Shown here one piece after another: positions 4,495 to 45,442 of a stretch of DNA of 64,000 nt. The stretch covers positions 13,826,001-13,890,000 of the forward strand of contig OZ024747.1 of the NCBI GenBank assembly GCA_964016885.1, read 5' to 3'. How positions within the stretch are numbered: the stretch's first letter is position 1; the number at the start of each line of letters is the position of its first letter. A program made the position numbers and the translations under genes. A model generated the notes under the pieces. The model ran no database searches. It was given only the letters and a program-made list of their open reading frames with translations, and was not told the DNA's origin. This stretch comes from Eledone cirrhosa. Taxonomy: Eukaryota.

Positions 4495-4670
4495 TCATGA
4501 CTGTATCATCTTTTTCTTTGGGTCAAAAATATATCGTTTGAATGACAAAATGATTTTCACAGGTTCCTTATCTGCAACAGAAGCAGAAGCAGCAGCATCA
4601 GCAGCATCAGCATTTTTTCCCTTCTTCTTTGTACTTGAGTATCTCTGCTGGACTTCATCACTTAAACCAT
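4495..4670 (-). CDS. EEFSEC: EEFSEC exon 7 (terminal coding exon)
   Basis: TTGCAG| (N)GLSDEVQQRYSSTKKKGK...VKIILSFKRYIFDPKKKMIQS-TGA. Matches the eEFSec C-terminal FKRY.FD...M.Q motif. Total CDS 1662 nt. Confidence 0.94.
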
Positions 4671-5079
4671 CTGCAATATATATATATGGAAATATAAATA
4701 TACACACACACATAGCTATAAATATTATTTTCTACATTTACTAAGAATTTCAATTTACTTGACATTTCAATGATTTATTTACAAATGTTGCTGCATTCAA
4801 AACTGATTATTTAGCTTCTATCATCATCATCGTTTAGCTGGCCTCCTTTTGGGGGTGTATTAATGATAGGAGCCTAATCCTATCTAGACAGTAATTGTCG
4901 TCAAGGGTTGTTTAGCACAATGGTACAGAGCGATCAAACATATCTGCAAGACACAATCATCTAACATGTCTATCTAGCCTCAGAATTTGACAACCTATCA
5001 AACCCATGCAAGCATGGACAAATAAACGTAAAACAATGATGATGGTAATTTGAATATGTAAAGAAAAATGCTTACTTAC

Positions 5080-5755
5080 TTGGAATACGAATCTTTACTT
5101 TACCACTTTGGCCAAAACTGCTCTCAATGATACCATTCTCACCACTTGATAAAGTCACTTTGAGGTTGACAAAAGCCTGGATATTTGTTTCTTTCTTGAA
5201 TAAATCCTTGCCAATAAGTGAATGGGCATCGGAAACTCGTTCAATCCTTCCCTCACGGGACTTCATTTTAAATATCTTGAGTTCTGCTAGTTTACCCTCC
5301 TTGTACTTAGAGTCAGTGTAATTTTTTAATAGTTTTCCATGGAAGGCGATCCGACACACATTTGCATTGATATCGCAGTCAAGTTTGGAGCCAATTACTA
5401 GACAAGAAGGCAAACATGTAATGGGTTTCTCAAATTCCAAGAGAGCATATTGGCAAAGCTGGGGTTGCTTTTCAAGTAATTCTTCTTGGTAGTTATATTC
5501 TCTAGAAAGATCTAAATTATTGTCTTGGTCAGAAACATTTTCAGTACCAAAAAATGTCACATGGGCCATAATAGTCTCATGACCGATGGTTATGTGGAAC
5601 TTGGCATTAGTTGATACAGTTCCTTTGTAGTAGGGGATTTTCTTTACAGATATTAAGCCTGCATAGATAGTGGGTAGGGAACCAGGAGAACATACAAGGC
5701 CCCGCTCCAGGAGTTTGGGGTCGAACTGTGTCACACAAATACCAGCACGGTCACC
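5080..5755 (-). CDS. EEFSEC: EEFSEC exon 6
   Basis: TTTGTAG| GDRAGICVTQFDPKLLERG...KFHITIGHET...CRIAFHG...SFGQSGKVKIRIP |GTAAGT. 676 nt, phase 0 to 1. Confidence 0.97.
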
Positions 5756-5992
5756 CTACAAAACAAAACAAAATACTGAAGTAACATCATCAATACAACA
5801 TTTTAAAGAGAGTAATTGGACATTTTCTTTTGGTATCCCCAATACAAAAAGTCGATAGGGTCTACATGGATTTTTGATTGTTTATTGAAGTTAGAATGGT
5901 CATGGTTTGTTGGAATTAATAAGAGTAAAATTAAATTTACAGCTCACACCTAAACAGGTTGAAAAGTATTGGGAATACAATGTTAAAACATT

Positions 5993-6115
5993 ACCTCAGA
6001 ACACTCATAAGACAGTTGTATGTCCCAACTGCTGGCTCAACAATGGAATACCATTGGAGCCAAGCACAGTTGATGGGCACACTTCATATTTGCGCAGAGT
6101 TTAGTCATCATTGGT
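5993..6115 (-). ncRNA. Candidate intronic box C/D snoRNA/scaRNA, copy 1 (EEFSEC intron 5, host sense strand)
   Basis: Minus strand reads ACCA-ATGATGA (box C, 6111-6105) ... CTGA (box D, 5999-5996)-GGT, with an ACC/GGT terminal stem and a long internal hairpin. Paralog at 6836-6958. Confidence 0.72.
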
Positions 6116-6835
6116 GGGAACAAAGGTCAGAAAATATTAAAAGGATAGGAAAAGATCATCATCATCATTACTGTTTTATGTCTAGTTTTCATGCTTGCAA
6201 GAGTGAAACAGGTTATCACATATAGAAGCTAAATAAGCTTTCCCCAAAATATGGGGCTTATTTGAATTTCCGCATTCCCCATTTCCAATGTCAAAAGCCT
6301 TTGACAGATCTACAAATGCAACCAAGAGGTCTGAAATTGCTTCCTAAATATCTCTTGAAGCTGCCCTTGTAACGAAGATCATATCGACTGACTTGATCGC
6401 TTCAAAAGCCATACTGTGACTGATGTAATATTTTAATGACAGTAGATGAGCTATTGATGGATGTGTAATTCTAGTATGCATGATGGCATAGCATGGATGA
6501 GCTGGGAGAAAAACTTAGTATAAGAGAGATCAAATGTAGTGTGCAAGGGAGAATATTGCATTGGTATGAATATATGATGTGCATAGATGATGATCACTGG
6601 GTAAAAAAGTTTCAAGTTTTCAATGGAAGGATGTTACTGAAGTGGAAAAGTGAGAAAACCTGGGCATAAGTGGTGGATGAAGGAACACAAGTAGAGGAAA
6701 GCTGAGCTGGAGAGACCCATCTAACCTATACAAGCTTGGAAAAGTAAATGTAAAAAAAATTGTGATGTCCAGCAGTTTGAGCATCCCTACAGACAGACTC
6801 ACTAATTCACTAAGCTAGGATCATGTTGCCATATT

Positions 6836-6958
6836 ACCTCAGAACACTCTAAAGACAGTTGCATGTCCCAGCTGTCGGCTCAACAATGGAATATCACTGG
6901 AGCCAGGTACAGTCAATGGACATACTTCATATTTGCGCAGAGTTTAGTCATCATTGGT
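6836..6958 (-). ncRNA. Candidate intronic box C/D snoRNA/scaRNA, copy 2
   Basis: Same 123-nt length and identical boxes and 5' segment (ATGATGACTAAACTCTGCGCAAATATGAAGT). Several hairpin substitutions keep base pairing. Confidence 0.72.
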
Positions 6959-7104
6959 GGGAACAAGAGAAGGTCAGAAAACATTAACTATTTCTTATGA
7001 AATGCAATGCCTATGATTTTCAAATAATTGTCATGTCCGACCATAATGAGGGACCGATTTGGAGTTAAACAACAACCACAAATACACTGATTTACTGAAC
7101 TGAC

Positions 7105-7188
7105 CTGGACAATTTTCTCAACTGGTAAACGAAACATTTGGATTGATTTTACATTTTTAGTAACTTTCAGAGATGGGATTTCGATGGT
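7105..7188 (-). CDS. EEFSEC: EEFSEC exon 5
   Basis: TTTTCCAG| TIEIPSLKVTKNVKSIQMFRLPVEKIVQ |GTCAGT. 84 nt. Confidence 0.95.
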
Positions 7189-7336
7189 CTGGAAAAGAAA
7201 AATCAATAAAACACTGCAATTAATCAAACTCATACCTGATGGAGTCAAATGGACACTAGTTAGTGACAATGAATGTGTTATAAGAACTTTAAATCCACAC
7301 TTCTCCAGGTCTGAACATAGCTGATTTCTTACAGAG

Positions 7337-7457
7337 AATAATAATAATAATGAAATTATTGTGTACAGTGCTCAGGTGCATTACAACTCATCAAAGGTGC
7401 ATGTATAGTACATAGAATAATGTACAAATGTCAGAAAAATGAACTGTATGAGTCATG

Positions 7458-7490
<33 letters not shown>

Positions 7491-7820
7491 AATATTGTGT
7501 ACAGTGCCCAGGTGCACCACAACTCATCAAAAAGTGCATGTACAGTACATAGGGCAATGCACAAACATCAGTAAAATGAACAGTGCACGAGTCATGATAC
7601 ACATGTGTGCATGTGTATGGAAGGGATACATCAGGTGTAGTTTTGGCGTATTTCGGGAAGCATGAGTGTCTTAAAGGATGCAGTGTCTCGGTAGCTAACA
7701 ACTGACGCAGGCAGTTTGTTCCATGCTTCAGCAACTCTGAGCGTGAAAAAATGTCTACGAAAGTCATGGGAGCTGTGCTGTTTTCTGATTTTGTAGGCAT
7801 GTCCACGTGTGTTAGACACA
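7337..7820 (-). mobile_element. CR1-clade LINE 3' fragment plus a second, adjacent copy of its 3' UTR
   Basis: TRGHAYKIRKQHS..FRRHFFTLRVAEAWNKLPASVV is the CR1-group ORF2 C-terminus. (ATT)n tails at about 7458-7488 and 7337-7351. Confidence 0.85.
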
Positions 7821-8740
7821 CGGAGATCAAAAAGGAGAGAAAGAATTAACTCAGTACTGGATAGCTACTTTTTTTTATCAACTTCAAAAGGATGAAAGAC
7901 AAAGTTGAACTCGGCAGGATTGGTGCTCAGAACACAGAGCCAGAACTAATACTGAAAAGAATTCCATCTGATGTTCTATTGACTCACTGCATTTGATAGC
8001 ATTGATAGAAGTGGCGTAAATATAGAGGGAAATAAAGGCTATATTATAAAATTAAACTGAGACAAACAACAAGTGAGAAATTGGCAGAGTCATTAAAAAC
8101 ATTGGATTAGTTGCTACAGTATTTGAGAAATACACTCCAATATTTTAACTCAGAGATAACTTCTTTAATAAAGACACTGCTATGTGTATAATATGGATAT
8201 GAACTAGACATTTTCTGACCGTGTTTCTTACTATTTCAATTAATTAACGATAAATTTTGAAGAAATTACTAAAATTATTAATCATTTCGTAACGAAGATA
8301 GTTACTTAACATATGATTCTTATATAAAACATGCTGAAAGATTATAATTTAAATAGTAACCCATTAAAATGGGTGATTTATTTCATAAAACCAGACCTGG
8401 GTTTGGTTGGGCTGGTCTCAAAAGAATTTAGAAACTCCTTACTTTGAATGACAGGGAGACAACTCTTGCAATTCATAATGGATATCTTATGTGGCGTAGG
8501 ATCTAAGAATGAAAGCTTCGCAGTTGTCTGATGCTCTAACGACTCTGACAATCTACCACTGTCATCATGATAATAATAATAATAATAATAATGATGGTTT
8601 CTGATTAAGGCACAAGGCCAGCAATATGGAGGAAGGTCGAAGTTGATTAAATCGATCCAGAACGTAAAGGGTCATAACTAAGCTGCGAAGCAGGGTGTCC
8701 AACCCACTGCTCTTAATAATAATAATAATAATGAACTCAC

Positions 8741-8926
8741 CTCATTGATTGAGACACTGCCACTAAGCACAGTACCAGTCATCACAGTTCCTTGTCCTCG
8801 AATTGAAAAGCAATGGTCAACAGAGAAAGTAAAAGGTCCAGTAAGGTTTCGTTCTGGAATATAGGTGTACTTCTTTAGGGCTTCAAGCAGTTCCACTATA
8901 CCTTCGGATTTAGGGTTATCTCCAGT
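8741..8926 (-). CDS. EEFSEC: EEFSEC exon 4
   Basis: CCTACAG| TGDNPKSEGIVELLEAL...SVDHCFSIRGQGTVMTGTVLSGSVSINE |GTGAGT. 186 nt, start of domain II. Confidence 0.96.
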
Positions 8927-9545
8927 CTGTAGGGATAAAACATCTTAATAAGAACAGCCATAAATTTAACAAATAACCTGCTATCTACTTACTTGTCATT
9001 TTCATCATCATCATCACCACCATTTTATGTATTTGTTTATGTTTGTATGGGTTAGATTGGTTATCACATTCTGAAGCTAGACTGATCAGATGACAGTGTC
9101 TCCCTCATGCTTTATATTTTGGCTTGGTTTCTATGGCTAGATGATTTCCTAATACCAACCACTTGGTATGTACTAACTACATTTTATTGTGGCACTGCCC
9201 CTACCACCTAACATGATGGACTGGGTGCTATTTATTGTAGCCCCACCACCACCATTTTTTACATGATTGTGTGTCCTTGACCAGGTTGGGGAGGCAGTGA
9301 TATTTATTGATATTAGAGACTGTTGTTTATTGTGCACAGGAAGATTTTTAGAAAAATTTCTTAACACAGCAGCAGGAAGAACAAAATAAAACAAAAATGA
9401 AATATGGAAAAAGATAGCTAGAACTGACAAAACATCACAAGGGTTGTAAAAATAAAATTGTTAAGGTGAGACCAAAGTAAGAACTCAGACAAAATCTGCC
9501 AAGCCCAAACAGAAGTCAGAATGATGTTTGAAAAAATTTACCAAC

Positions 9546-9635
9546 CTCAGTTTCTCCAGGATTAGCAGACACTGCAATTATTGGGGATTTGGCAAACTTT
9601 GTGGACTCCAGTGTTTTAAGTAACCGCTTGGTCAT
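9546..9635 (-). CDS. EEFSEC: EEFSEC exon 3
   Basis: TTTCCAG| MTKRLLKTLESTKFAKSPIIAVSANPGETE |GTTGGT. 90 nt, contains the G5-like VSA motif. Not in the supplied ORF track. Confidence 0.93.
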
Positions 9636-9935
9636 CTGGAAATAGTAAATGTTTCAAATGTTAGGGTATAAATATGATGATAGTCATAGTAATACACCAT
9701 CAATCAATTTGAGTGATGGAAACCAAGTGAAGAGCTGCTGAAAGCTGATCCCAATAAATGGAATCTCCCAAATGAGATGACAAAGGAAAGAAATAAAGAG
9801 AGATATGGTACTGGAGAGGCCTCATCTTATTAATGTGAGCAAAGAAAAATGGATGTAAAAATGATGATGATGATCTTCCAATCACTCTTTAGAATGAGTA
9901 GGGGACTAATTCTTTTTACAACTGATCTTCTTCTT

Positions 9936-10221
9936 CATCATCATCATCATCATCTGGCGACCTCAGCCGAAATCGACTCAACAATTGAACTCCACGTGGG
10001 TCTGTTGCTCATTGCCGCTGCCAAATTCTGGATTTCAATACTAGAATCTCTGGAGATGGCATCGGGATAGGAGAGCTTGTGCCCCCTGTTATTAGTGACT
10101 GCTTGTGGTTTCCAAAGCACTAATGGGGACACAGCCTTATAGTTGGCACGATGGCAGTGGCCAGCAAATCTTACTCTCCTTTTACATACGACAGATATGC
10201 GTGGGAGGCCGGCATATTTTA
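9936..10221 (-). mobile_element. RTE/RTE-X LINE 3' fragment
   Basis: Minus translation KRRVRFAGHCHRA...VSPLVLWKP...YPDAISRD...AMSNRPTW, followed by a (GAT)n tail. Confidence 0.8.
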
Positions 10222-11132
10222 GATGAAGATGAGTTTACAAAGTAAGACTTACAATAGAAAATAGAAACTAAAAGAGATAAGAACTTTAACACTAATGAAA
10301 GACACTGCCTTTGATTTTCAAATAGTTTTGAAAATAATCAAGAATTTTGTAATATATCTAACTTACTCATTATTAAGCTGCAGTTTGGTGCATTACCAAT
10401 TCATAATAAAAAATTTGGAAAGATTTAATAATACAATTTTCTCATTTTTAAGCTGGTGTTTGGAGCATAATTTAACATAAGGTTCTTATATAAAATTATG
10501 ATGAACGGTTTCTTTAAATAAATATAAACTCTTTAACATAAATAGCTATAGTGCCATGACAAAAGAATTCAGCTCACCCTGTTAGGTGATAGTGTTGATG
10601 CCATGACAATCAGCATTCTGTTACCAGCACTACCAAAGTGGTACTGCTGGTACTATGATGAAAAGCAACCAGTCCACTCAGTAAGGTGGTAATGCTAGTA
10701 TCACAAAATATGCTCCCAGTCCACACTGTAAGGTGGTTGGTGCTAGGGAGGCACCCAGCAGTAGAAACCAAGCCTAAAACGAAACACATGTGCAGGATGT
10801 GGTCACCTGACCTGCCTAACCCATGCACATTAATTAGTGATGATTGGCAGTATTGGTAGAGGGTCAGATGCCATGCTTTGCAGCATAGAGTTACGGCCCT
10901 TAATGATCTGAGTTCCAATCCCACCGAGGTTAACTTTGCCTTTCATCCTTACGGAGTCGATAAAATAAAGTACCAGTAATGTACTGGGATAATTGCTGGC
11001 CTTGTGCCAAACGTAGAAACAATTAGTGATGATGATGATGATGATGATGTACAAATGAGATTGAAGAAATGAGAGAAGAAATAAAATGTGAGAGGAAGTT
11101 TGAACATGCTGGAGAAATGAATGAACCAGTAC

Positions 11133-11302
11133 CTTTTCAGTTGTAGCAGTCTTTTTAGCTGGTGGCAACAAGTCAGTCTTGTTGAGTACTACAATCATTT
11201 TCTCACAGGCAATCTCTCCAACCACGAGACACTCAGCAGTTTGAGTTTGTATCCCTTTAGTGATGTCAACAACCAGGATCATAAGGTCAATAATCTGGGC
11301 AC
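11133..11302 (-). CDS. EEFSEC: EEFSEC exon 2
   Basis: TAG| acceptor. Translates (G)AQIIDLMILVVDITKGIQTQTAECL...VLNKTD (G4 motif). Donor AAG|GTACTG, phase 1 to 0. Confidence 0.96.
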
Positions 11303-12274
11303 CTAAGGAGTGAAAATGAAATGTAATTTACACCTTACTCCTATGCAAGTTTAGTTGGACTCCTATGTAGATTTATTTTATAGGTTTCTTGAGGGTTTTA
11401 ATGACACGACCCCAGTCCCAGAATAATGTTTTCTATTTTAAGTACAAGGTCAGTAATTTTGGGGCAGGGTAATGTCGACTATATCGACCCCAGTACTTGA
11501 CTGGTACTTTATTTTATCAATCACAGATGGATCAAAAGCAAAGTTGACCCCAGTGGGTTTTGAACTCAGACGCCCTACCTACTGTCTCTTCACCATCCTT
11601 CCCTAGACCTACAATACTACTACTACTACTACTAATAATAAAACACTATATTATTTTGCCATGAACCCACTGAAACGAAAGATTGTACATAGGCACCATA
11701 ATCGTCCGTTTATTTATACACGAAAAGCTGCGTAAAATAAAGTATCTTGCTCAAGAACACAATGGATAGCCCGGTTCAGGAATCGAACACATGGTCTTAT
11801 GATTCTGAATCCAACATCCTTAACCCTTTAGCATTTACATTACTCTATATTTACTATTATGTTTTCATGGTGAACACTTTACCACATGTAATTATCTCAC
11901 ACAATATCGAATCTATGAGATTTTGATATTATTTATTTTGAGAACAATACCATAACATCAGTATGAGTGGCCAGTTATGGCTGGTTTGAACAGAAAGGGG
12001 TTAGAAAATTCTGGCCGGTTGAACTAAGTTGTCTTTTCCGATTCACCGGATTCATTTCGCATGTTGGGTTTTATTATTTTTTAATTTTCACTAATACAGA
12101 CAGAGTCGGCTAGACAATTGTTTGTTACCGTGTATGTACAGGTATGGGTGTTATTGCATGTGTGTATGTTTTGAGTTATAAGTACACATATACATGGTTT
12201 TAGACCTATACATGTGTACATGCAGTTATTACTTGCTAAATTTCTGAAATGTTTTACATATTTTTACACTTCTA

Positions 12275-12620
12275 TTAATGGACTGTACTTGCAATTCCTA
12301 ATTGGCCCCGTTCTAGTTCTGTAAAGTCTAACTTTTCAAGTTTTGTACTAAGGTCGTAAACATATCTAAGTGCCCCAAAGATCACAGGTACACATCTAAA
12401 GGTATAGTCAAGGTGGAGTATTTGCAAATTCCTCATTAGTTCAGCAAAAATATTTTTGCTATGTAAGTATTTGAACTGAAAGAGCCGGAATGAATACCGG
12501 TGAGTGGGAGAAGATACTTTCATTTTCTTCATTCGAGATATAGAACCCTGTCTGCAACTAAAAACAAATATATATAAAGACAATATCCTTTTTATATGAA
12601 AATCGGGTTGAATGGGTGAC
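12275..12620 (-). mobile_element. Degenerate RLE-type (R4/Dong-like) non-LTR retrotransposon remnant
   Basis: The peptide DYTFRCVPVIFGALRYV resembles the VP(I/V)(V/I)IGALG motif seen intact at 43828-44250. Confidence 0.45.
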
Positions 12621-12841
12621 ATAAATGAATTAGGAAGTTAAATTACTAGAGCACCAATACAACGTGGGTTGTGAATAAATATATGGCGGTCATACCCACG
12701 TGTGTTTAAAGGATGTGACTGTTCCATAAGAACTACTGCCCCGATCCATACATACGTGTGTATATATATATACTGGTGAGATAGAGTAAATTATAAAAAA
12801 GAAGGAAATATGAAGTTAAAAATATGTAATCATTCCATTAC

Positions 12842-13121
12842 CTCCAATAATAGTTCGAATGAGAGAAGCGTGACCTGGACAGTCAACAAACGTAAACTGA
12901 AGCCGTTCATATTTAGTCGCCAATTCAACAAGGTGTGAAGGAATATCGACAACTGCAGAAGAGAAGCCTAAGTCTAACGTAATTCCACGCTCTTTACTCT
13001 GGGGGTTTTTATCAAAGCAAGCAGTGCTGGCTGTTGTACTTAATATTTTCGATAGACTTGTTTTGCCACTATCCACGTGCCCCAACACACCAACATTAAA
13101 ATTAAATGTAGATGCCGACAT
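12842..13121 (-). CDS. EEFSEC: Selenocysteine-specific elongation factor, coding exon 1 (G domain, P-loop)
   Basis: Translates MSASTFNFNVGVLGHVDSGKTSL...ERGITLDLGFSS...FVDCPGHASLIRTIIG. G1/G2/G3 motifs typical of SelB/eEFSec. Donor GAG|GTAATG, phase 1. Confidence 0.97.
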
Positions 13122-13720
13122 GTTGAAGGAAAAAAAAAGTTTATAAAAAAATAACAAAATAAAAACAGGAAGTGAAAATTATTTATTTCCTGTCCGGTTT
13201 CGAACATAAAAAAATTGGTTAAGTAGATTCATTTATTTACTGGAAGTGAAATAACTGCAAATATGACAATTGTCAAGGTTTTGTTTTTAGCATAATTTGT
13301 AAGAAAAACAATTAATCCTTTTGTGCATTTGTAGCCAGGGCGATACAAATTCATAAACATGAGAAACTATTTTCATAGTGATATGCTTTGGTTCGAGATT
13401 ATTTACAAAAATAAAAACATTTCGTATTTATTTAACATTTTGAATTATAGAAATAATGGAAAGAATATTTACAGGAATAATTTATTTATAAAATTTATAT
13501 TTAATTTTTCATTTTTATTATATATTTTTATTTGCTTTTAAATGTTAATAATCTACTCAACGTTTACGGTAATTGTCGGGAACTTCCGGCAATAAACGCC
13601 AAGACGATCGGCCTGAATGGCTGCAAGTTGTGAAAACAAAACTGATTCAGTTGAATGAAGATGTATATAAAAGAGGAAAATTTACGCCTTTGGCCCAAAA
13701 CTAAACGTCGTCAATGTAAG
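13122..13720. promoter_or_regulatory. Probable bidirectional promoter shared by EEFSEC and WDR47
   Basis: Divergent ATGs about 1.26 kb apart. ETS/GABP-type motifs ACAGGAAGTG (13165), CTGGAAGTG (13240) and ACTTCCGG (13582). Locally more CpG than the flanks. Confidence 0.6.
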
Positions 13721-14379
13721 GTATTACACGACTTTTTCCATTAATTCTGCCTCTGTTTGAATATATCTTTATATATCTTCATTTTTGCCTGGGATTTTCA
13801 GTCGGTCGGGGCAATCTTTTCCTTGGTATTCTCGCTAGGTGCTACATCTACATGTGTCTTGGAGCTGCTACTTCTACGATAATCCATGGATTTATTATAG
13901 TCTACAGTGTTTTACCCAAACCTCGGATTTTTACTAATAATTCCCTCGACAAAACTTTAACTACGAACGGTTATTTTACCGATTGATATCCTTTGATAAA
14001 CCTATCCCTCATTCTCTCTCTACATATTTCTACACTTGTCTATTTCTATCTTTCTTTCTAACTATACATGTATCTCACTATCTATTTATCTCTATAGTTT
14101 CCTTCCTTCTTCTGTTAAATTCATTACAATCTGAAAATAGTCTTCAGTCTGTTGGATTCTTACAGTGACAAACTGCGTCATGGAGTAACGATGCATTTAT
14201 TCAAGTTTGGAATATTTTCTTTTAAATCCAACTAAAATATAAAAAATTCTAGAAGAAAAAAAATATATTTCTTCAACATTTTTTTTTTATCACTTGAAGT
14301 GAACATTTTAAAAAAATTTATTCTAAGAATAATATTTTTTTTTTGTTTTCTGTGGAAGTTTTAATTGTATTTACTAACA

Positions 14380-15928
14380 ATGCCGGCTGCAAATATTGTA
14401 GTAAACGAAACAGACGTACTCCGTCTTGTGACGGAATTTCTTCAGAATCGTGAACTGAACATTTCTATGATGTCTCTGGAGCGAGAGACTGGGGTCATCA
14501 ATGGCCTCTTTTCAGACGATATGCTCTTTTTGCGTCAACTAATTCTGGATGGTCAGTGGGACGATGTAATGGACTTTATCCAGCCGTTGGGCAGTGTTGA
14601 CGATTTCGACACTAAACGTTTCGAGTATGTGATTATGAAACACAAATATCTGGAACTACTATGCATCAAATCAGAACCCAGCATTATGGCCAACTACGAC
14701 TTCACGGTCGACGAAGTGGTCAAATGTCTCAACTCGCTCGAGTCACTTTGTCCAACTAAAGAAGAATACAGCAACCTTTGCCTGTTGCTCACCCTACCCC
14801 GTTTGGCTAGTCACATCGATTACCAAAACTGGAACCCGAGCAATGCTCGTGCCCAGTGCTTCAAGACTGTTTACCCGATGGTCGAGAACTTACTGCCGTT
14901 CGAACGTAAAAATGACCAGAACAACTTGGTGGCCAAAAATGACCGCTTGTTACAATTACTTTTGAAAGGTTTGCTATACGAATCGTGTGTGGATTATTGC
15001 CAGTCAAAGGCAACTAGCAACGGAGATGAAATGGAACTGAAATTCGCATCACTGTTGAACGATACTGGTCTCAGCGATGCTGATTTGAGCCTCCTCTCCT
15101 GGCTACAGAGCATTCCCTCGGACACATTTTCTTGTCCATTTGAACAGAAGACGATGAATGTCGACGTTCGACCACTGACAAAGCCATCACTGGAAGCGTC
15201 ATGGTCAGAACAGATCCTCGTCACCCCCATCAAACCTCGTATGTTCCCACATTCTCATGTACCCACCACTCGCCCTAGGGGAGGCGCCGACATGATGACT
15301 CGCTCCTTAAACCCGCAATTTGATGGCCTGTCCAGCGGCCTTTGGCAAGGGAGGCGGGACTCGGGCGATGGACTTAGCCCTATGTCTCGTTCCATGACCC
15401 CAGCAGCCAGACTGTTCAATATGAAAAAGAACCCGATGCAAATGTCGATGGACAAGCTGTTTGAGGAAAGCGAGGTAATCAACACGCAAAGTTCCATCTC
15501 CGACGATTCGCGTTCATTTCGTTCGTCGTCCTCAGTGACATCGTCTCCACTTAGAACCCCGAAGAACGTCAAGTCGGGTACGTCAACTACACCGCCGCGT
15601 TCTTACTCGCCCGTAAACAACAACATTACCACTTCGGTAACAGACTCTCCAAAACACCTCAAGTTAAACACCACCGCCTCTGCCACGCCGGGGCCTGCTG
15701 GGTCCACCAACACGGAGTTGTTTAAGGAATACCAGCGCCAGAAACAGCGTCTGCAAGAACAACTAGAACTTCAAGAACAACAAAAGGAACAGTACCAGAA
15801 AGAACTAAATGAACTCGAGAAGAAACAGACCCTGTTGAGCGATAACCGGATTAAGGATGAAGTACGCTACTCGCAACAATCATTCAGCTCACCAGAAACA
15901 TCCACTCGGTCTTTACAAGGAACTCCAG
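14380..15928 (+). CDS. WDR47: WD repeat-containing protein 47 (nemitin), first coding exon: LisH, CTLH, Ser/Pro-rich linker and coiled coil
   Basis: Translates MPAANIVVNETDVLRLVTEFLQNRELNISMMSLERETGVINGLFSDDMLFLRQLILDGQWDD...WNPSNAR...KGLLYESCVDYCQ...DLSLLSWLQ, motifs characteristic of WDR47. Donor CAG|GTAAGT, phase 1. Confidence 0.96.
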
Positions 15929-16925
15929 GTAAGTCCTTTTACTTAGGTTTTTTTTCTTTCTTTTTTTTTTTTTTTTTTAATCTGAACCCATAGTGGTGGA
16001 ATCACATCGTCCCCTGGGCCCCCGAAACATTTCTCTACCTACAGCGATCGGGATGGAGACGATCATCCGGGAGAATGAACCACACAAGTTGTACTGACTC
16101 TTTCAAGCACATTTTCGCAATTCCTCCCCGGATGACACTTGCAATTCTGTCCTTTGGGAGCATCAGGCAACATCCATGTAATGTTTTGCAAAGGACATGA
16201 GATGGTAGTGTCATCAATTAATGGGTTTGTTTCTTTTAAATAGCTTTCTTATTGTTACCTAAGAATCGTGATAATTTGGTTGGTCATGTTCAATGTCACC
16301 AACACCAGTTGTATTGATATCAGGTTGCCAAGTCACACACCATGCAGTCCTTTAGAAATGTAGAGATGTGTTTACTTATTCTATACAGGGATAATTGGTC
16401 AACACTGGTCTCGAAAATTGACGTTCATGAATCCTATAGAAAGAGATCTAAAACATAATTGAGATAGTAGATACACGAATTTAAATTCGTGTTTATTCTG
16501 TATAAACTGTTTTGATTTCATATATTGAATGTTTTCTGGTTACTACGTTCAATGTGTAAACTTAATGCTGATGACATATCGATCTCTTCGCTTTATCTGA
16601 AGGTCCCTTTGTCCAGACTTGCTAAGTGATATATAAATATATAGTTATTGTGTGCCTAAACCAGTAATGGGAGTATTTAGAGAACGGAAGTTTCTTTGTT
16701 TTGTTTCTTTAATTAAATTATTTACTATCTTATGTTTATTTTCTGATCTCCTTCCATGCTTAGGATACGTCAGGATGAGTGTTCGCAGATTTAGCTCCAT
16801 TAGCCTTTTCCTTACCATATTCATAATGAAAAAGACACTGCCTATGATTTTCAAATCATTTTGAAAATAATCAAGAATTTAAAGCGATTTAGTAAAATAA
16901 TTAACTTTCATTATTAAATAGGAGT

Positions 16926-34232: not shown

Positions 34233-37200
34233 ACTGGCTGTGTGTTCACTGTGTGCTGTGACTGGCTGTGTGTTCACTGTGCTGTCACTGGCTGTGTGTT
34301 CACTGTGTGCTGTGACTGGCTGTGTGTTCACTGTGCTGTCACTGGCTGTGTGCTGTGACTGGCTGTGTGTTCACTGTGCTGTCACTGGCTGTGTGTTCAC
34401 TGTGTGCTGTCACTGGCTGTGTTCACTCTGTGTTGTCACTGGCTGTGTGTTCACTGTGTGCTGCCACTGGCTGTGTTCACTGTGTGCTGTCACTGGCTAT
34501 GTGTTCACTCTGTGCTGTCACTGCTGTGTGTTCACTGTGTGCTGTCACTGGCTGTGTGTTCACTGTGTGCTGTCACTGGCTGTGTTCACTGTGTGCTGTC
34601 ACTGGCTGTGTTCACTGTGTGCTGTCACTGGCTGTGTGTTCACTGTGTGCTGTCACTGGCTGTGTGTTCACTGTGTGCTGTCACTGGCTGTGTGTTCACT
34701 GTGTGCTGTCACTGGCTGTGTGTTCACTGTGTGCTGTCACTGGCTGTGTGTTCACTGTGCTGTCACTGGCTGTGTGTTCACTCTGTGCTGTCACTGCTGT
34801 GTGTTCACTGTGTGCTGTCACTGGCTGTGTGTTCACTGTGTGCTGTCACTGGCTGTGTGTTCACTGTGCTGTCACTGGCTGTGTGTTCACTCTGTGCTGT
34901 CACTGCTGTGTGTTCACTGTGTGCTGTCACTGGCTGTGTTCACTGTGTGCTGTCACTGGCTGTGTGTTCACTGTGTGCTGTCACTGGCTGTGTGTTCACT
35001 GTGTGCTGTCACTGGCTGTGTGTTCACTGTGTGCTGTCACTGGCTGTGTTCACTGTGTACTGTCACTGGCTGTGTTCACTGTGTACTGTCACTGGCTGTG
35101 TTCACTGTGTGCTGTCACTGGCTGTGTTCACTGTGTACTGTCACTGGCTGTGTTCACTGTGTGCTGTCACTGGCTGTGTTCACTGTGTACTGTCACTGGC
35201 TGTGTTCACTCTGTGCTGTCACTGGCTGTGTGTTCACTCTGTGCTGTCACTGGCTTTGTGTTCACTGTGTGCTGTCACTGGCTGTGTTCACTGTGTGCTG
35301 TCACTGGCTGTGTGTTCACTCTGTGCTGTCACTGGCTGTGTTCACTGTGTGCTGTCACTGGCTGTGTTCACTCTGTGCTGTCACTGGCTGTGTTCACTGT
35401 GTGCTGTCACTGGCTGTGTTCACTGTGTGCTGTCACTGGCTGTGTGTTCACTGTGCTGTCACTGGCTGTGTGTTCACTGTGTGCTGTCACTGGCTGTGTG
35501 TTCACTGTGCTGTCACTGGCTGTGTGTTCACTGTGTGCTGCCACTGGCTGTGTGTTCACTGTGTGCTGTCACTGGCTGTGTGTTCACTGTGTGCTGTCAC
35601 TGGCTGTGTGTTCACTGTGTGCTGTCACTGCTGTGTGTTCACTCTGTGCTGTCACTGCTGTGTGTTCACTGTGTACTGTCACTGGCTGTGTTCACTGTGT
35701 GCTGTCACTGGCTGTGTGTTCACTGTGTACTGTCACTGGCTTTGTTCACTCTGTGCTGTCACTGGCTGTGTTCACTGTGTGCTGTCACTGGCTGTGTGTT
35801 CACTGTGTGCTGTCACTGGCTGTGTGTTCACTGTGTGCTGTCACTGGCTGTGTTCACTGTGTGCTGTCACTGCTGTGTGTTCACTGTGTACTGTCACTGG
35901 CTTTGTTCACTCTGTGCTGTCACTGGCTGTGTTCACTGTGTGCTGTCACTGGCTGTGTGTTCACTGTGTGCTGTCACTGGCTGTGTTCACTGTGTGCTGT
36001 CACTGGCTGTGTGTTCACTCTGTGCTGTCACTGCTGTGTGTTCACTGTGTGCTGTCACTGGCTGTGTTCACTGTGTGCTGTCACTGGCTGTGTTCACTGT
36101 GTGCTGTCACTGGCTGTGTGTTCACTGTGTGCTGTCACTGGCTGTGTGTTCACTGTGCTGTCACTGGCTGTGTTCACTGTGTGCTGTCACTGGCTGTGTG
36201 TTCACTGTGTGCTGTCACTGGCTGTGTTCACTGTGTGCTGTCACTGGCTGTGTTCACTGTGTGTTCACTGTGTGCTGTCACTGGCTGTGTGTTCACTGTG
36301 TGCTGTCACTGGCTGTGTTCACTGTGTGCTGTCACTGGCTGTGTGTTCACTGTGTGCTGTCACTGGCTGTGTTCACTGTGTGCTGTCACTGGCTGTGTTC
36401 ACTGTGTGCTGTCACTGGCTGTGTGTTCACTGTGTGCTGTCACTGGCTGTGTGTTCACTGTGTGCTGTCACTGGCTGTGTGTTCACTGTGCTGTCACTGG
36501 CTGTGTTCACTGTGTGCTGTCACTGGCTGTGTTCACTGTGTGCTGTCACTGCTGTGTGTTCACTGTGTACTGTCACTGGCTTTGTTCACTCTGTGCTGTC
36601 ACTGGCTGTGTTCACTGTGTGCTGTCACTGGCTGTGTTCACTGTGTGCTGTCACTGCTGTGTTCACTGTGTACTGTCACTGGCTTTGTTCACTCTGTGCT
36701 GTCACTGGCTGTGTGTTCACTGTGTGCTGTCACTGGCTGTGTGTTCACTCTGTGCTGTCACTGCTGTGTGTTCACTGTGTGCTGTCACTGGCTGTGTTCA
36801 CTGTGTGCTGTCACTGGCTGTGTTCACTGTGTGCTGTCACTGGCTGTGTGTTCACTGTGTGCTGTCACTGGCTGTGTGTTCACTGTGTGCTGTCACTGGC
36901 TGTGTGTTCACTGTGCTGTCACTGGCTGTGTTCACTGTGTGCTGTCACTGGCTGTGTGTTCACTGTGTGCTGTCACTGGCTGTGTTCACTGTGTGCTGTC
37001 ACTGGCTGTGTTCACTGTGTGCTGTCACTGGCTGTGTGTTCACTGTGTGCTGTCACTGGCTGTGTGTTCACTGTGTGCTGTCACTGGCTGTGTGTTCACT
37101 GTGTGCTGTCACTGGCTGTGTGTTCACTGTGTGCTGTCACTGGCTGTGTGTTCACTGTGTGCTGTCACTGGCTGTGTGTTCACTGTGCTGTCACTGGCTG

Positions 37201-37708
37201 TGTTCACTGTGTGCTGTCACTGGCTGTGTTCACTGTGTGCTGTCACTGGCTGTGTGTTCACTGTGTGCTGTCACTGGCTGTGTTCACTGTGTGCTGTCAC
37301 TGGCTGTGTGTTCACTGTGTGCTGTCACTGGCTGTGTGTTCACTGTGTGCTGTCACTGGCTGTGTGTTCACTGTGTGCTGCCACTGGCTGTGTGTTCACT
37401 GTGTGCTGTCACTGGCTGTGTGTTCACTGTGTGCTGTCACTGGCTGTGTGTTCACTGTGTGCTGTCACTGGCTGTGTGTTCACTGTGTGCTGTCACTGGC
37501 TGTGTGTTCACTGTGTGCTGTCACTGGCTGTGTTCACTGTGTGCTGTCACTGGCTGTGTTCACTGTGTGCTGTCACTGGCTGTGTTCACTGTGTGCTGTC
37601 ACTGGCTTTGTGTTCACTGTGTGCTGTCACTGGCTGTGTTCACTGTGCTGTCACTGGCTTTGTGTTCACTGTGTGCTGTCACTGGCTGTGTACTGTCACT
37701 GGCTTTGT
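34233..37708. repeat. ~3.5-kb minisatellite, ~26-28-bp unit (ACTGGCTGTGTGTTCACTGTGTGCTGTC), roughly 130 units
   Basis: Direct tandem repetition; length variants come mainly from GT-dinucleotide slippage. Confidence 0.98.
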
Positions 37709-43721: not shown

Positions 43722-44250
43722 TTATTATTATTATTATTATTATTATTATTGTTCTTTGAGTCTCAGTCATTGATGTTAGTTAACTGGAAAGTTTGTTGAA
43801 ATGAATATCAAGCCACTACCTGCAGCCTCAGATATTCAGGACGTATCGGAGGGTTCTTGCTGTTCCCAGCAAGCATGCCTTTTGAAGCATTCCAAAAAGC
43901 GTGAAGGGGCCAATTTTCTTTAACCATCCCTGGAAACTTTTTGAGATAGTACCTAGTGCGCCTATGACAATCGGGACCACTTTGACATCATGGCAGTTCC
44001 AAATCCTTTTTACCTCCCACTTTAAGTCCTGGTATCGGTTAATTTTCTCCCTCTCCTTCTCTTGCACTCTCGTGTCGAATGGGCAGGCCACATCCACAAT
44101 CAGGCACAATCTTTTTTCTTTGTCCAAAACCACCAGGTCAGGTCTATTGTGTTCCAGTTTCTTGTCCGTCTGTATCCTAAAATCCCACAGCACCTTCAAC
44201 TGATCGTTTTCTATCACCGACTCTGGCTTATGCTCATACCACTTCTCATT
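43722..44250 (-). mobile_element. 5'-truncated R4/Dong-clade non-LTR retrotransposon (restriction-like endonuclease domain, 3' UTR and (TAA)n)
   Basis: KWYEHKPESVIEN...LWDFRIQTDKKLEHNRPDLVVLD...IVDVACP...KINRYQDL...VVPIVIGALG is a PD-(D/E)xK RLE domain. Ends in a TAA microsatellite at 43722-43750. Confidence 0.9.
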
Positions 44251-45442
44251 ATATGTAATGGTGTTGCAGTTTGATTGATAAGAATATTCGAGAAGTTAAT
44301 CTAGTTAATATAGGCTTTGAATTGGCAGTCATTAAAGTGCCTGATTAAATGCCCCTGTCTTTGTTTCGGCTCTCTGCATTCCGAGTTCAAATCCAAGGTC
44401 AACTTTGATTTTCACCTTTTTGGGTTGATAAAGCAAATACCAATCCAGCAGCAGTGGGTTGATGGTGTTGTTAAATAGTCAGACAGGAGGCTTTACAGTA
44501 TGGCTCTGTGCATTCTGAGTTCAAATCCTGCCTCTTCCTGCCAGGAGTTGCAGTCAGCAGATACTATCAGCAATGAAATGACCAATGGAAATATAGTTTC
44601 CTTGGTTCAATCTGATTATCAGTTCTTTTCTTATGAGTTAATTTGAACATCCAACAAAAGTGATTGCTTTCATTGTTGTTGTCAATATTGTTGTCGTCGT
44701 TGTCAATATTGTTGTCGTCGTTTTCATTGTTGTTGTTGTTGTTTAGTGCCAAATCAAGTCTGAGTGAGCAGACTTGACCAAAGGCATTTTCATTGTGACC
44801 ATCCCATCATGTTTTAAGACATTGTGTATCTAGGACTATATCATTTAATACGCCCTGTGAGGATTTTATAGGGAGATTCGGCTTCTATTTTTAGCAGGTC
44901 AAGTGACCATGTCATAGTACCAGCTGTTGCTGTTAGTAGTTAATAAATTGATTGATTATTTTTTAAATTATTTGAAAATTATAGGCAGCATCTCATTAGA
45001 AATATAATAATGAAAGGGTTAAGAGCCACTTGAGATACGCTCCAGAGTTGCATATAGCTCTAGAGCCACAGGTTCCCCACCCTTGTCTTTCAGTACATTT
45101 ATCACATCATTCATGTCATTTGACTGATGAAACTAGTGTTTTTATTAGATTCTGAGCCATACTTGATTACTAATTTGTTCAACACGTTGCTGTTCTCATT
45201 CTCACAGCTGCCTGTTTCTGTTTTTTTCTGTTAATGTTTGTCTTGTGTGTTGTCTGTATTAATTGGTGATAATATTCTTGTTAAGCAGCTCTGGTCAACT
45301 TTATGTGTTGCAAAAGAGGCTAATTGAATAATTAGGAAATCTAAGCTATCAGTTGAATGAACCTCTTTGCTATGTTACACTTCAGTTTTATCTATAACAG
45401 TCTACATTTCCTATTCAATCGTTGATTATTCATACATGTATA

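Follow-up and report, generated by a model that had tools for sequence, protein, structure and literature searches.

A pair of box C/D RNA genes in an EEFSEC intron of the octopus Eledone cirrhosa, likely guides for 2′-O-methylation of the U4 snRNA 5′ end

Two closely similar copies of a 123-nt element lie in a single intron of the EEFSEC gene of the octopus Eledone cirrhosa, within a 64,000-nt stretch of contig OZ024747.1 (the window, whose positions are used below). This arrangement raises three questions: which kind of RNA the copies encode, which base of which target it would modify, and how two RNAs could be produced from one intron. Our analysis points to intronic box C/D genes which, with good though not full confidence, can be predicted to guide 2′-O-methylation of the 5′ end of U4 snRNA, at C8 and/or G7.

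Two box C/D RNA genes in one EEFSEC intron

The host gene occupies 4498..13124 of the minus strand (outer limits approximate) and comprises seven coding exons mapped by tblastn. Its large exon carries the Pfam domains PF21208 and PF21131, and in the protein search octopus eEFSec was the top match (90%), followed by an Argonauta protein (81%). Intron 5 (5756..7104, minus strand, 1349 nt, GT..AG) contains both copies. The copy transcribed first (6836..6958, minus strand, 123 nt) starts 146 nt past the 5′ splice site, while the downstream copy (5993..6115, minus strand, 123 nt) is followed by the 3′ splice site 237 nt further on. A sequence-only reading had proposed two 123-nt copies, 843 bp apart, on the sense strand of one EEFSEC intron; the exact positions, the Pfam domains and the exon map bear this out. 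On the other side of the host gene, a long open frame at 14377-15990 (plus strand) encodes a WDR47 cross-over domain (PF25602); its start and that of EEFSEC, which is on the opposite strand, are separated by about 1.25 kb, and this head-to-head pair may share one promoter.

Of the 720-nt spacer between the copies (6116..6835), about 30 nt are duplicated 5′ flank, and pieces of high-copy repeats occur near 6153-6230 and 6480-6660. A Pfam search of these pieces gave no match; by their motifs, they resemble fragments of a LINE reverse transcriptase. Elsewhere in the window, a satellite with a 28-bp unit in about 124 copies and a strong strand asymmetry fills 34346-37691, and a 155-codon frame at 43831-44295 (minus strand) weakly matches PF18741 (E=0.033); the latter presumably belongs to a non-LTR retroelement, of which it would be the end with the restriction-like endonuclease.

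Both copies share one anatomy, given here in RNA numbering, with the minus-strand positions of the downstream and then of the other copy. Nucleotides 1-3 (ACC) pair with 121-123 (GGU) in a 3-bp terminal stem. Box C, AUGAUGA, spans nt 5-11 (6105..6111; 6948-6954), and box D, CUGA, nt 117-120 (5996..5999; 6839-6842), so that the ACC-A-AUGAUGA start and the CUGA-GGU end recognized earlier were found in each copy. The 11-nt antisense element CUCUGCGCAAA at nt 17-27 (6089..6099; 6932-6942) precedes box D′, read either as AUGA or as a five-base U-AUGA (6084..6088; 6927-6931), which aligns with UUGA, UUUA and CUGA of the look-alike RNAs described below. An apical hairpin of 65 nt follows at nt 34-98 (6018..6082; 6861-6925), in which CUC-CAR faces UUG-UU-GAG around a 2-nt bulge. 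Beyond it lies a degenerate box C′, CUGUCUU (6009..6015; 6852-6858); the sequence-only reading saw no clear C′ box, which must be revised, as this element takes the same position as C′ of the six look-alikes. Thus the terminal boxes C (RUGAUGA) and D (CUGA) with a short stem, by which the class is recognized, are present in both copies together with an internal D′ and C′.

The predicted hairpins are significantly more stable than 200 shuffled sequences (z=-5.3 and -4.5), in agreement with the earlier estimate of an internal hairpin of about 65 nt; for the whole RNAs the z values are -2.8 and -1.7. Extending the outer stem into the flanking sequences gave weak pairings (-3.7 and -10.6 kcal/mol). 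The sequence-only reading had also stated that the differences between the copies preserve pairing. This stands for five of the 12 differences in the hairpin, which are wobble exchanges; the changes that preserve pairing are mostly one-sided transitions between G.U and Watson-Crick pairs. One difference loses the loop-closing pair, three others are unpaired, one causes a shift of register, and the remaining two together form one possible double change. Because all 12 are transitions, they give modest support taken alone.

Over the 123 nt, 109 are identical and 14 differ. None of the differences touches the boxes or the guide, and the first 35 nt are invariant (P=0.007 if the 14 differences were random); an invariant 5′ segment had been noted before. 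Similarity also reaches about 30 nt upstream of the RNA, which had been missed: the 5′ flanks (6116-6147 and 6959-6994) differ by one mismatch and one 4-nt gap, and include another CUGA. On the 3′ side, where similarity was thought to drop within a few nucleotides of box D, it is gone about 14 nt past the end. The duplicated unit, of which about 30 nt are 5′ flank, measures approximately 165 nt, and the pair would have been produced by a local duplication of this size. The conserved flank could serve in processing, or simply reflect that the duplication is young.

When the 3-Gb genome was searched at the DNA level (E<=10), only these two places and no third copy came up. Since such a search passes over common words, contig depth was used as an additional check: contigs of a genomic run reconstruct both copies with no difference, and the depth over 5997-6074 is 32 (16.2 + 15.8), i.e., that of two copies, with repeats on both flanks. 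Contigs from the four runs examined read through the intron, and run X4 had none over the downstream copy. The genome-wide copy number is hence two by both approaches. The box C and guide pattern matched four times genome-wide, and the two matches beyond the known copies lack a D′ box; distant paralogs in this genome are excluded by DNA and pattern searches only. A transposon fragment (MITE or SINE) was ruled out by the two genome matches and the two-copy depth, against the many dispersed copies expected. These results also bear on the view that one or both copies are silent remnants of a recent duplication, or repeat pieces. The 5′ flank is conserved as well as the RNA itself, so the duplication may be young, but all 14 differences fall outside the boxes and the guide (with the same P value for the first 35 nt), just two copies exist, and the two extra genomic matches are without D′ box; we consider this view barely credible. 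Rather, selection seems to maintain both of them.

The antisense element and the 5′ end of U4

Antisense elements of box C/D guides measure 10-21 nt and are located just upstream of box D or D′. Nucleotides 17-27 form a perfect 11-bp Watson-Crick complement of nt 4-14 of the octopus's own U4 snRNA; one U and then the AUGA of D′ follow. The guide region was compared with U1, U2, U4, U5, U6, U12, U4atac, 18S, 5.8S and 28S RNAs of the same genome, among which the U4 match was the longest. Matches to the other snRNAs did not exceed 8 bp, and those to rRNA reached 8-10 bp, the ones of 9-10 bp in mature rRNA including two G.U pairs. The U4 match was equalled by 128 of 200,000 shuffled guide regions among snRNAs (p=0.0006), and by 803 of 200,000 with rRNA added. 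The ten nucleotides preceding box D showed no good snRNA or rRNA match common to both copies and vary across species, and the D-side guide is likely unused. The Pol II spliceosomal snRNA target that characterizes scaRNAs is thus recognized in U4 by complementarity only.

U4 nt 13 supplies an additional argument. All eight U4 loci that were read, out of 42 U4 matches in the genome, have A13, and the octopus guide carries a U opposite this base, whereas the Rfam U91 consensus and all six look-alikes carry an A there; the covariation between guide and U4 at nt 13 is read from one measured U4, the octopus one. Vertebrate U4 has U13, for which the A of the U91 consensus is expected. The genome contains at least two U4 types which differ in the 3′ stem-loop region, one at a single locus (L001, C2) and the other in a tandem array (L002-L008, C1); they are identical over the first 20 nt. 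The rRNA genes are much expanded, with an 18S of about 2870 nt (L151, L152) and a 28S of about 5100 nt (L153 1391-6504). It is very improbable that the true target is another RNA (rRNA, tRNA, U11, U6atac or mRNA) and the U4 match incidental. The comparison covered the snRNAs and rRNAs named above, and a 9-bp match exists in the spacer ahead of 5.8S rRNA; nevertheless, the best matches of the D′ region in mature rRNA stay at 8-10 bp with the G.U pairs mentioned above, while the U4 match is perfect and tracks the octopus A13.

The guide covers the U4 strand of U4/U6 stem II. Each RNA would be released from the spliced intron, bind the C/D core proteins with fibrillarin and pair with free U4; guiding would precede the annealing of U4 to U6 because it is with nt 4-14 that U4 binds U6 in stem II. 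Which base would be modified depends on the D′ box. C/D RNPs are described to act on the target base that pairs with the guide five nucleotides ahead of D or D′ (PMC8522698), and in human U4, Cm8 is given with scaRNA17 as its guide (PMC7960923). In the octopus register G7 is at +5 from AUGA and C8 at +6, while in the U91 consensus C8 is at +5. If D′ has four bases (AUGA), G7 is at +5; if it has five (UAUGA), as reported for yeast U18, the site would shift to C8. The five-base reading is drawn from the yeast work, in which a D′ without 5′ C can act as a five-base box with the site moved to +6, and both positions are modified by U18, whose D′ is likewise U-AUGA (PMC5389607).

Seven of the eight RNAs (the octopus pair and the six look-alikes) have no 5′ C in D′, as in the yeast five-base boxes, and we infer methylation at C8, G7 or both, placing C8 somewhat ahead because it is the known site. 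One look-alike, L090, argues against a simple ruler: its canonical CUGA D′ lies two bases after AAA and sets U6 at +5, which fits neither G7 nor C8 simply. A description of U4-Gm7 was not found in the literature search, and an Arabidopsis map lists A67 alone for U4, with the terminal 20 nt left to manual inspection (PMC8053127). The one-base offset offers a natural test of whether a D′ without 5′ C shifts the animal ruler to +6.

The position of the guide also suits a role without methylation, in which the RNAs would act as a chaperone or decoy, keeping the U6-binding strand occupied while U4 is free, up to its assembly with U6. The stem II strand of U4 is covered by the guide, which nearly copies the U6 partner strand (own U6 CCCUGCGCAAGG) and pairs at U4 A13 where U6 does not; the degenerate C′/D′ and the varying register (L090) would be poorly tolerated by a methylation ruler. 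However, the spacing between guide and D′ is fixed in seven of the eight RNAs, the pairing of stem II between D′ and C′ is kept, and human U4 is reported to carry a guided methyl mark in the same region (PMC7960923), all of which render this role unlikely and favor guided methylation of U4.

Look-alike RNAs in introns of other animal genes

A scan of metagenome contigs with a pattern of box C, guide and D′ yielded at least 120 loci. Among the matches listed, we retained six look-alike RNAs at five loci, in introns of four unrelated animal genes and on the sense strand. Two are copies in the same intron of a kinesin gene, 807 nt apart (L086, 2236-2338 and 1425-1531, minus strand); the host is, by its motifs, presumably KIF23-like, and the two copies differ much more than those of the octopus do. 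L048 and L050 lie in U2SURP introns (best named matches scallops, 74%), L090 in an eIF4B intron (best named match Daphnia, 55%), and L100 in an intron of a dsRBD-protein gene for which the protein search matched eukaryote clusters only; that L100 is of insect origin is a guess. The other 114 of the at least 120 pattern loci were set aside, e.g., L040 within an open frame, and many of them are, by motif, presumably bacterial recA. Near a contig end, L067 (41-69, plus strand) has a box C, the guide CACUGCGCAAA and a CUGA with no later D box, possibly by chance; the long frame just after these elements is, by its motifs, presumably kinesin-like. A tighter pattern gave no match in viral contigs and a single bacterial locus in genome contigs, which scored 14.5 bits under the six-sequence model described below.

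In five of the six look-alikes the conservation of the guide is circular, as the pattern contains it; the exception is L086 2236-2338, which the pattern did not match. The pattern did not dictate the intron position, the downstream C′ and D with their constant spacing, or the further L086 copy. A model was built from the octopus pair alone and run on 100 of the at least 120 pattern loci; its top scores (38.8 to 23 bits, against 21.5 for the next) went to L048, L050, the two L086 copies and L100, L090 not being among the matches listed. A six-sequence model that was not trained on L100 or L090 ranked these two first (35.7 and 31.4 bits, next 25.8) in 99 of the at least 120 loci plus L150. In the alignment of all eight sequences, which was fitted to the structure and so leans towards pairing, 77% of cells pair versus 54% in shuffled and 32-41% in slid controls, and the terminal 3-bp stem keeps its pairs in 95.5% of cells (same fitted alignment). 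The whole RNAs of five of the six look-alikes fold no better than shuffles (z between -0.5 and +0.6).

The order of elements is constant in the eight RNAs: RUGAUGA-Y and 3-4 nt lead to CWCUGCGCAAA, which a single base separates from D′ (two bases in L090); then come the hairpin, C′, about 10 variable nucleotides and CUGA. Box D′ varies between AUGA, UUGA, UUUA and CUGA, and C′, which is GUGUCAA, AUGUCAA, GUGUUAA, AUGUGAA or AUGAUAA in the look-alikes and CUGUCUU in the octopus, is without GA in seven of the eight. In seven of the eight, a pair links the first position of D′ with the sixth of C′; it is A-U in the octopus in place of U-A, a change on both sides. L090 and L100 are the weakest members.

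Rfam produced no match at cut-off over the 64-kb window, consistent with a family that is not annotated, and at E<=10 over 5700-7200 it returned ten matches, of which none covers either copy as a snoRNA; RF00283 did not list the copies at this threshold either. The absence of an Rfam match at cut-off, the presence of two copies only and the boxes shared with the look-alikes support an unannotated long box C/D family. The sequence-only reading had proposed an unannotated sno/scaRNA family hosted by the Sec elongation factor gene; the family holds, but its hosts also include kinesin, U2SURP, eIF4B and dsRBD-protein genes.

Processing, Cajal bodies and known guide RNAs

Two C/D RNAs in one intron raise the question of their separation. 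Trimming would proceed inward from the two ends of the intron, and a cut within the spacer would then free the copies from each other, like in vertebrate two-domain scaRNAs, among which SCARNA9 is described as an intronic two-domain RNA that is cut internally (PMC5612246). If the lariat were only trimmed from its two ends, a 966-nt RNA would result, similar to the sno-lncRNAs reported elsewhere (PMC4234469, PMC4696412, PMC10557570). That the copies stay joined and cap such a 966-nt sno-lncRNA as the main product seems distinctly unlikely, despite several observations in its favor. An intron with two snoRNAs, which sno-lncRNAs are stated to require (PMC4234469, PMC4696412), is found here, and L086 provides another, independent pair whose copies are 807 nt apart. 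The idea of a mini-exon in the spacer was rejected: two acceptor-like sites exist at 6637 and 6502, but no strong donor follows that would split the copies into separate introns. On the other hand, the spacer is partly high-copy repeat DNA, a single copy is seen at four of the five other loci within the contig DNA examined, and two-domain C/D scaRNAs of vertebrates are cut internally (PMC5612246). Internal cutting of the repeat-filled spacer is favored over the long form, for which the second pair in L086 speaks; the joined form is compatible with guiding and changes the mature form only. In carrying two C/D units per intron the octopus locus resembles both sno-lncRNAs and SCARNA9, with the difference that its units are paralogs with the same guide.

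The octopus RNAs are probably Cajal-body RNAs, given their snRNA target and long apical hairpin, features described for such RNAs (PMC4041459, PMC3884663). The signals described in one of these sources are a GU/UG wobble stem, the Drosophila cgaGUUAnUg box and a ugAG loop (PMC4041459). Neither a GU repeat nor the Drosophila box was found in the eight RNAs; five contain a bulged UGAG/AGAG word. The hairpin motif YUC-CAR / YUG-UW-GAG around the 2-nt bulge is present in five of the eight and absent from three. This bulged motif is a candidate Cajal-body signal: the apical hairpin with its bulged UG-UW-GAG, ending in the ugAG-like word, would act as one, and would be a candidate route of molluscan C/D guides to Cajal bodies.

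A much wider reading combines these elements: an invertebrate-wide family outside Rfam, writing U4 Gm7 (alone or with Cm8) by a sliding C′/D′, carrying a new bulged Cajal-body signal, and twice duplicated within an intron into an RNA of about 0.9-1 kb that would bind U4 at either end, a two-domain design at which vertebrates also arrived in SCARNA9 and SCARNA17. We regard it as speculative and rather unlikely as a whole. The RNAs belong to a well-known class with a predictable job, and the surprise is moderate.

Long-hairpin scaRNAs are known in human (U90, mgU2-47) and Drosophila (mgU4-65, mgU2-28, mgU2-41, mgU5-38, mgU5-42). They are likewise intronic with an snRNA target and a long apical hairpin, which is described to carry their Cajal-body signal (PMC4041459, PMC3884663); unlike them, the octopus RNAs lack the GU/UG repeat stem and the cgaGUUAnUg box, and their target site is different. 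Yeast U18, snR13 and U24 also have a D′ without 5′ C, and that of the octopus is identical to the five-base D′ of U18 (PMC5389607), but they guide rRNA sites and are unrelated in sequence; the ruler shift only is borrowed as a model. A search of the literature outside most subscription journals found neither this RNA family nor invertebrate U4-8 guides.

The closest known system is U91, or mgU4-8 (RF00283, SCARNA18), the 3′ box C/D domain of vertebrate SCARNA17 (mgU12-22/U4-8). RF00283 matched both L086 copies weakly (19.6 and 17.9 bits, gathering cut-off 40), 19.6 being the highest score in the family, and it headed the weak Rfam matches of one look-alike (17.9 bits). A separate U91 gene in the octopus genome was rejected, since its one RF00283 match (25.7 bits) has no box C and is regarded as chance. 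Like U91, the octopus RNA directs a guide upstream of D′ against the 5′ end of U4, and its layout is that of the U91 consensus (GCC/GGC terminal stem, AUGAUGAC start, box C, guide CACUGCGCAA, D′). In contrast to U91 (83 nt), the octopus family measures 103-123 nt and consists of a single intronic domain with a long apical hairpin and degenerate C′/D′, and in the octopus RNA one extra base separates guide and D′. U91 is described to form one part of a capped RNA with two domains that is transcribed independently (PMC4041459): SCARNA17 has its own Pol II unit and an upstream mgU12-22 domain, whereas the octopus RNA is intronic and its U12 match is at most 8 bp and inside the hairpin. The octopus copies were not filed as U91 because the RF00283 match is weak and two defining features, the 40-bit score and C8 at D′+5, are not found. 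Still, the octopus RNA likely works like U91 and is related to it, and the pair likely represents the invertebrate counterpart of this vertebrate guide. If this is right, guided methylation of the U6-pairing strand of U4 is not restricted to vertebrates, and the likely ancestor of the U4-8 domain in SCARNA17 is a stand-alone guide encoded in introns, which moved between host genes.
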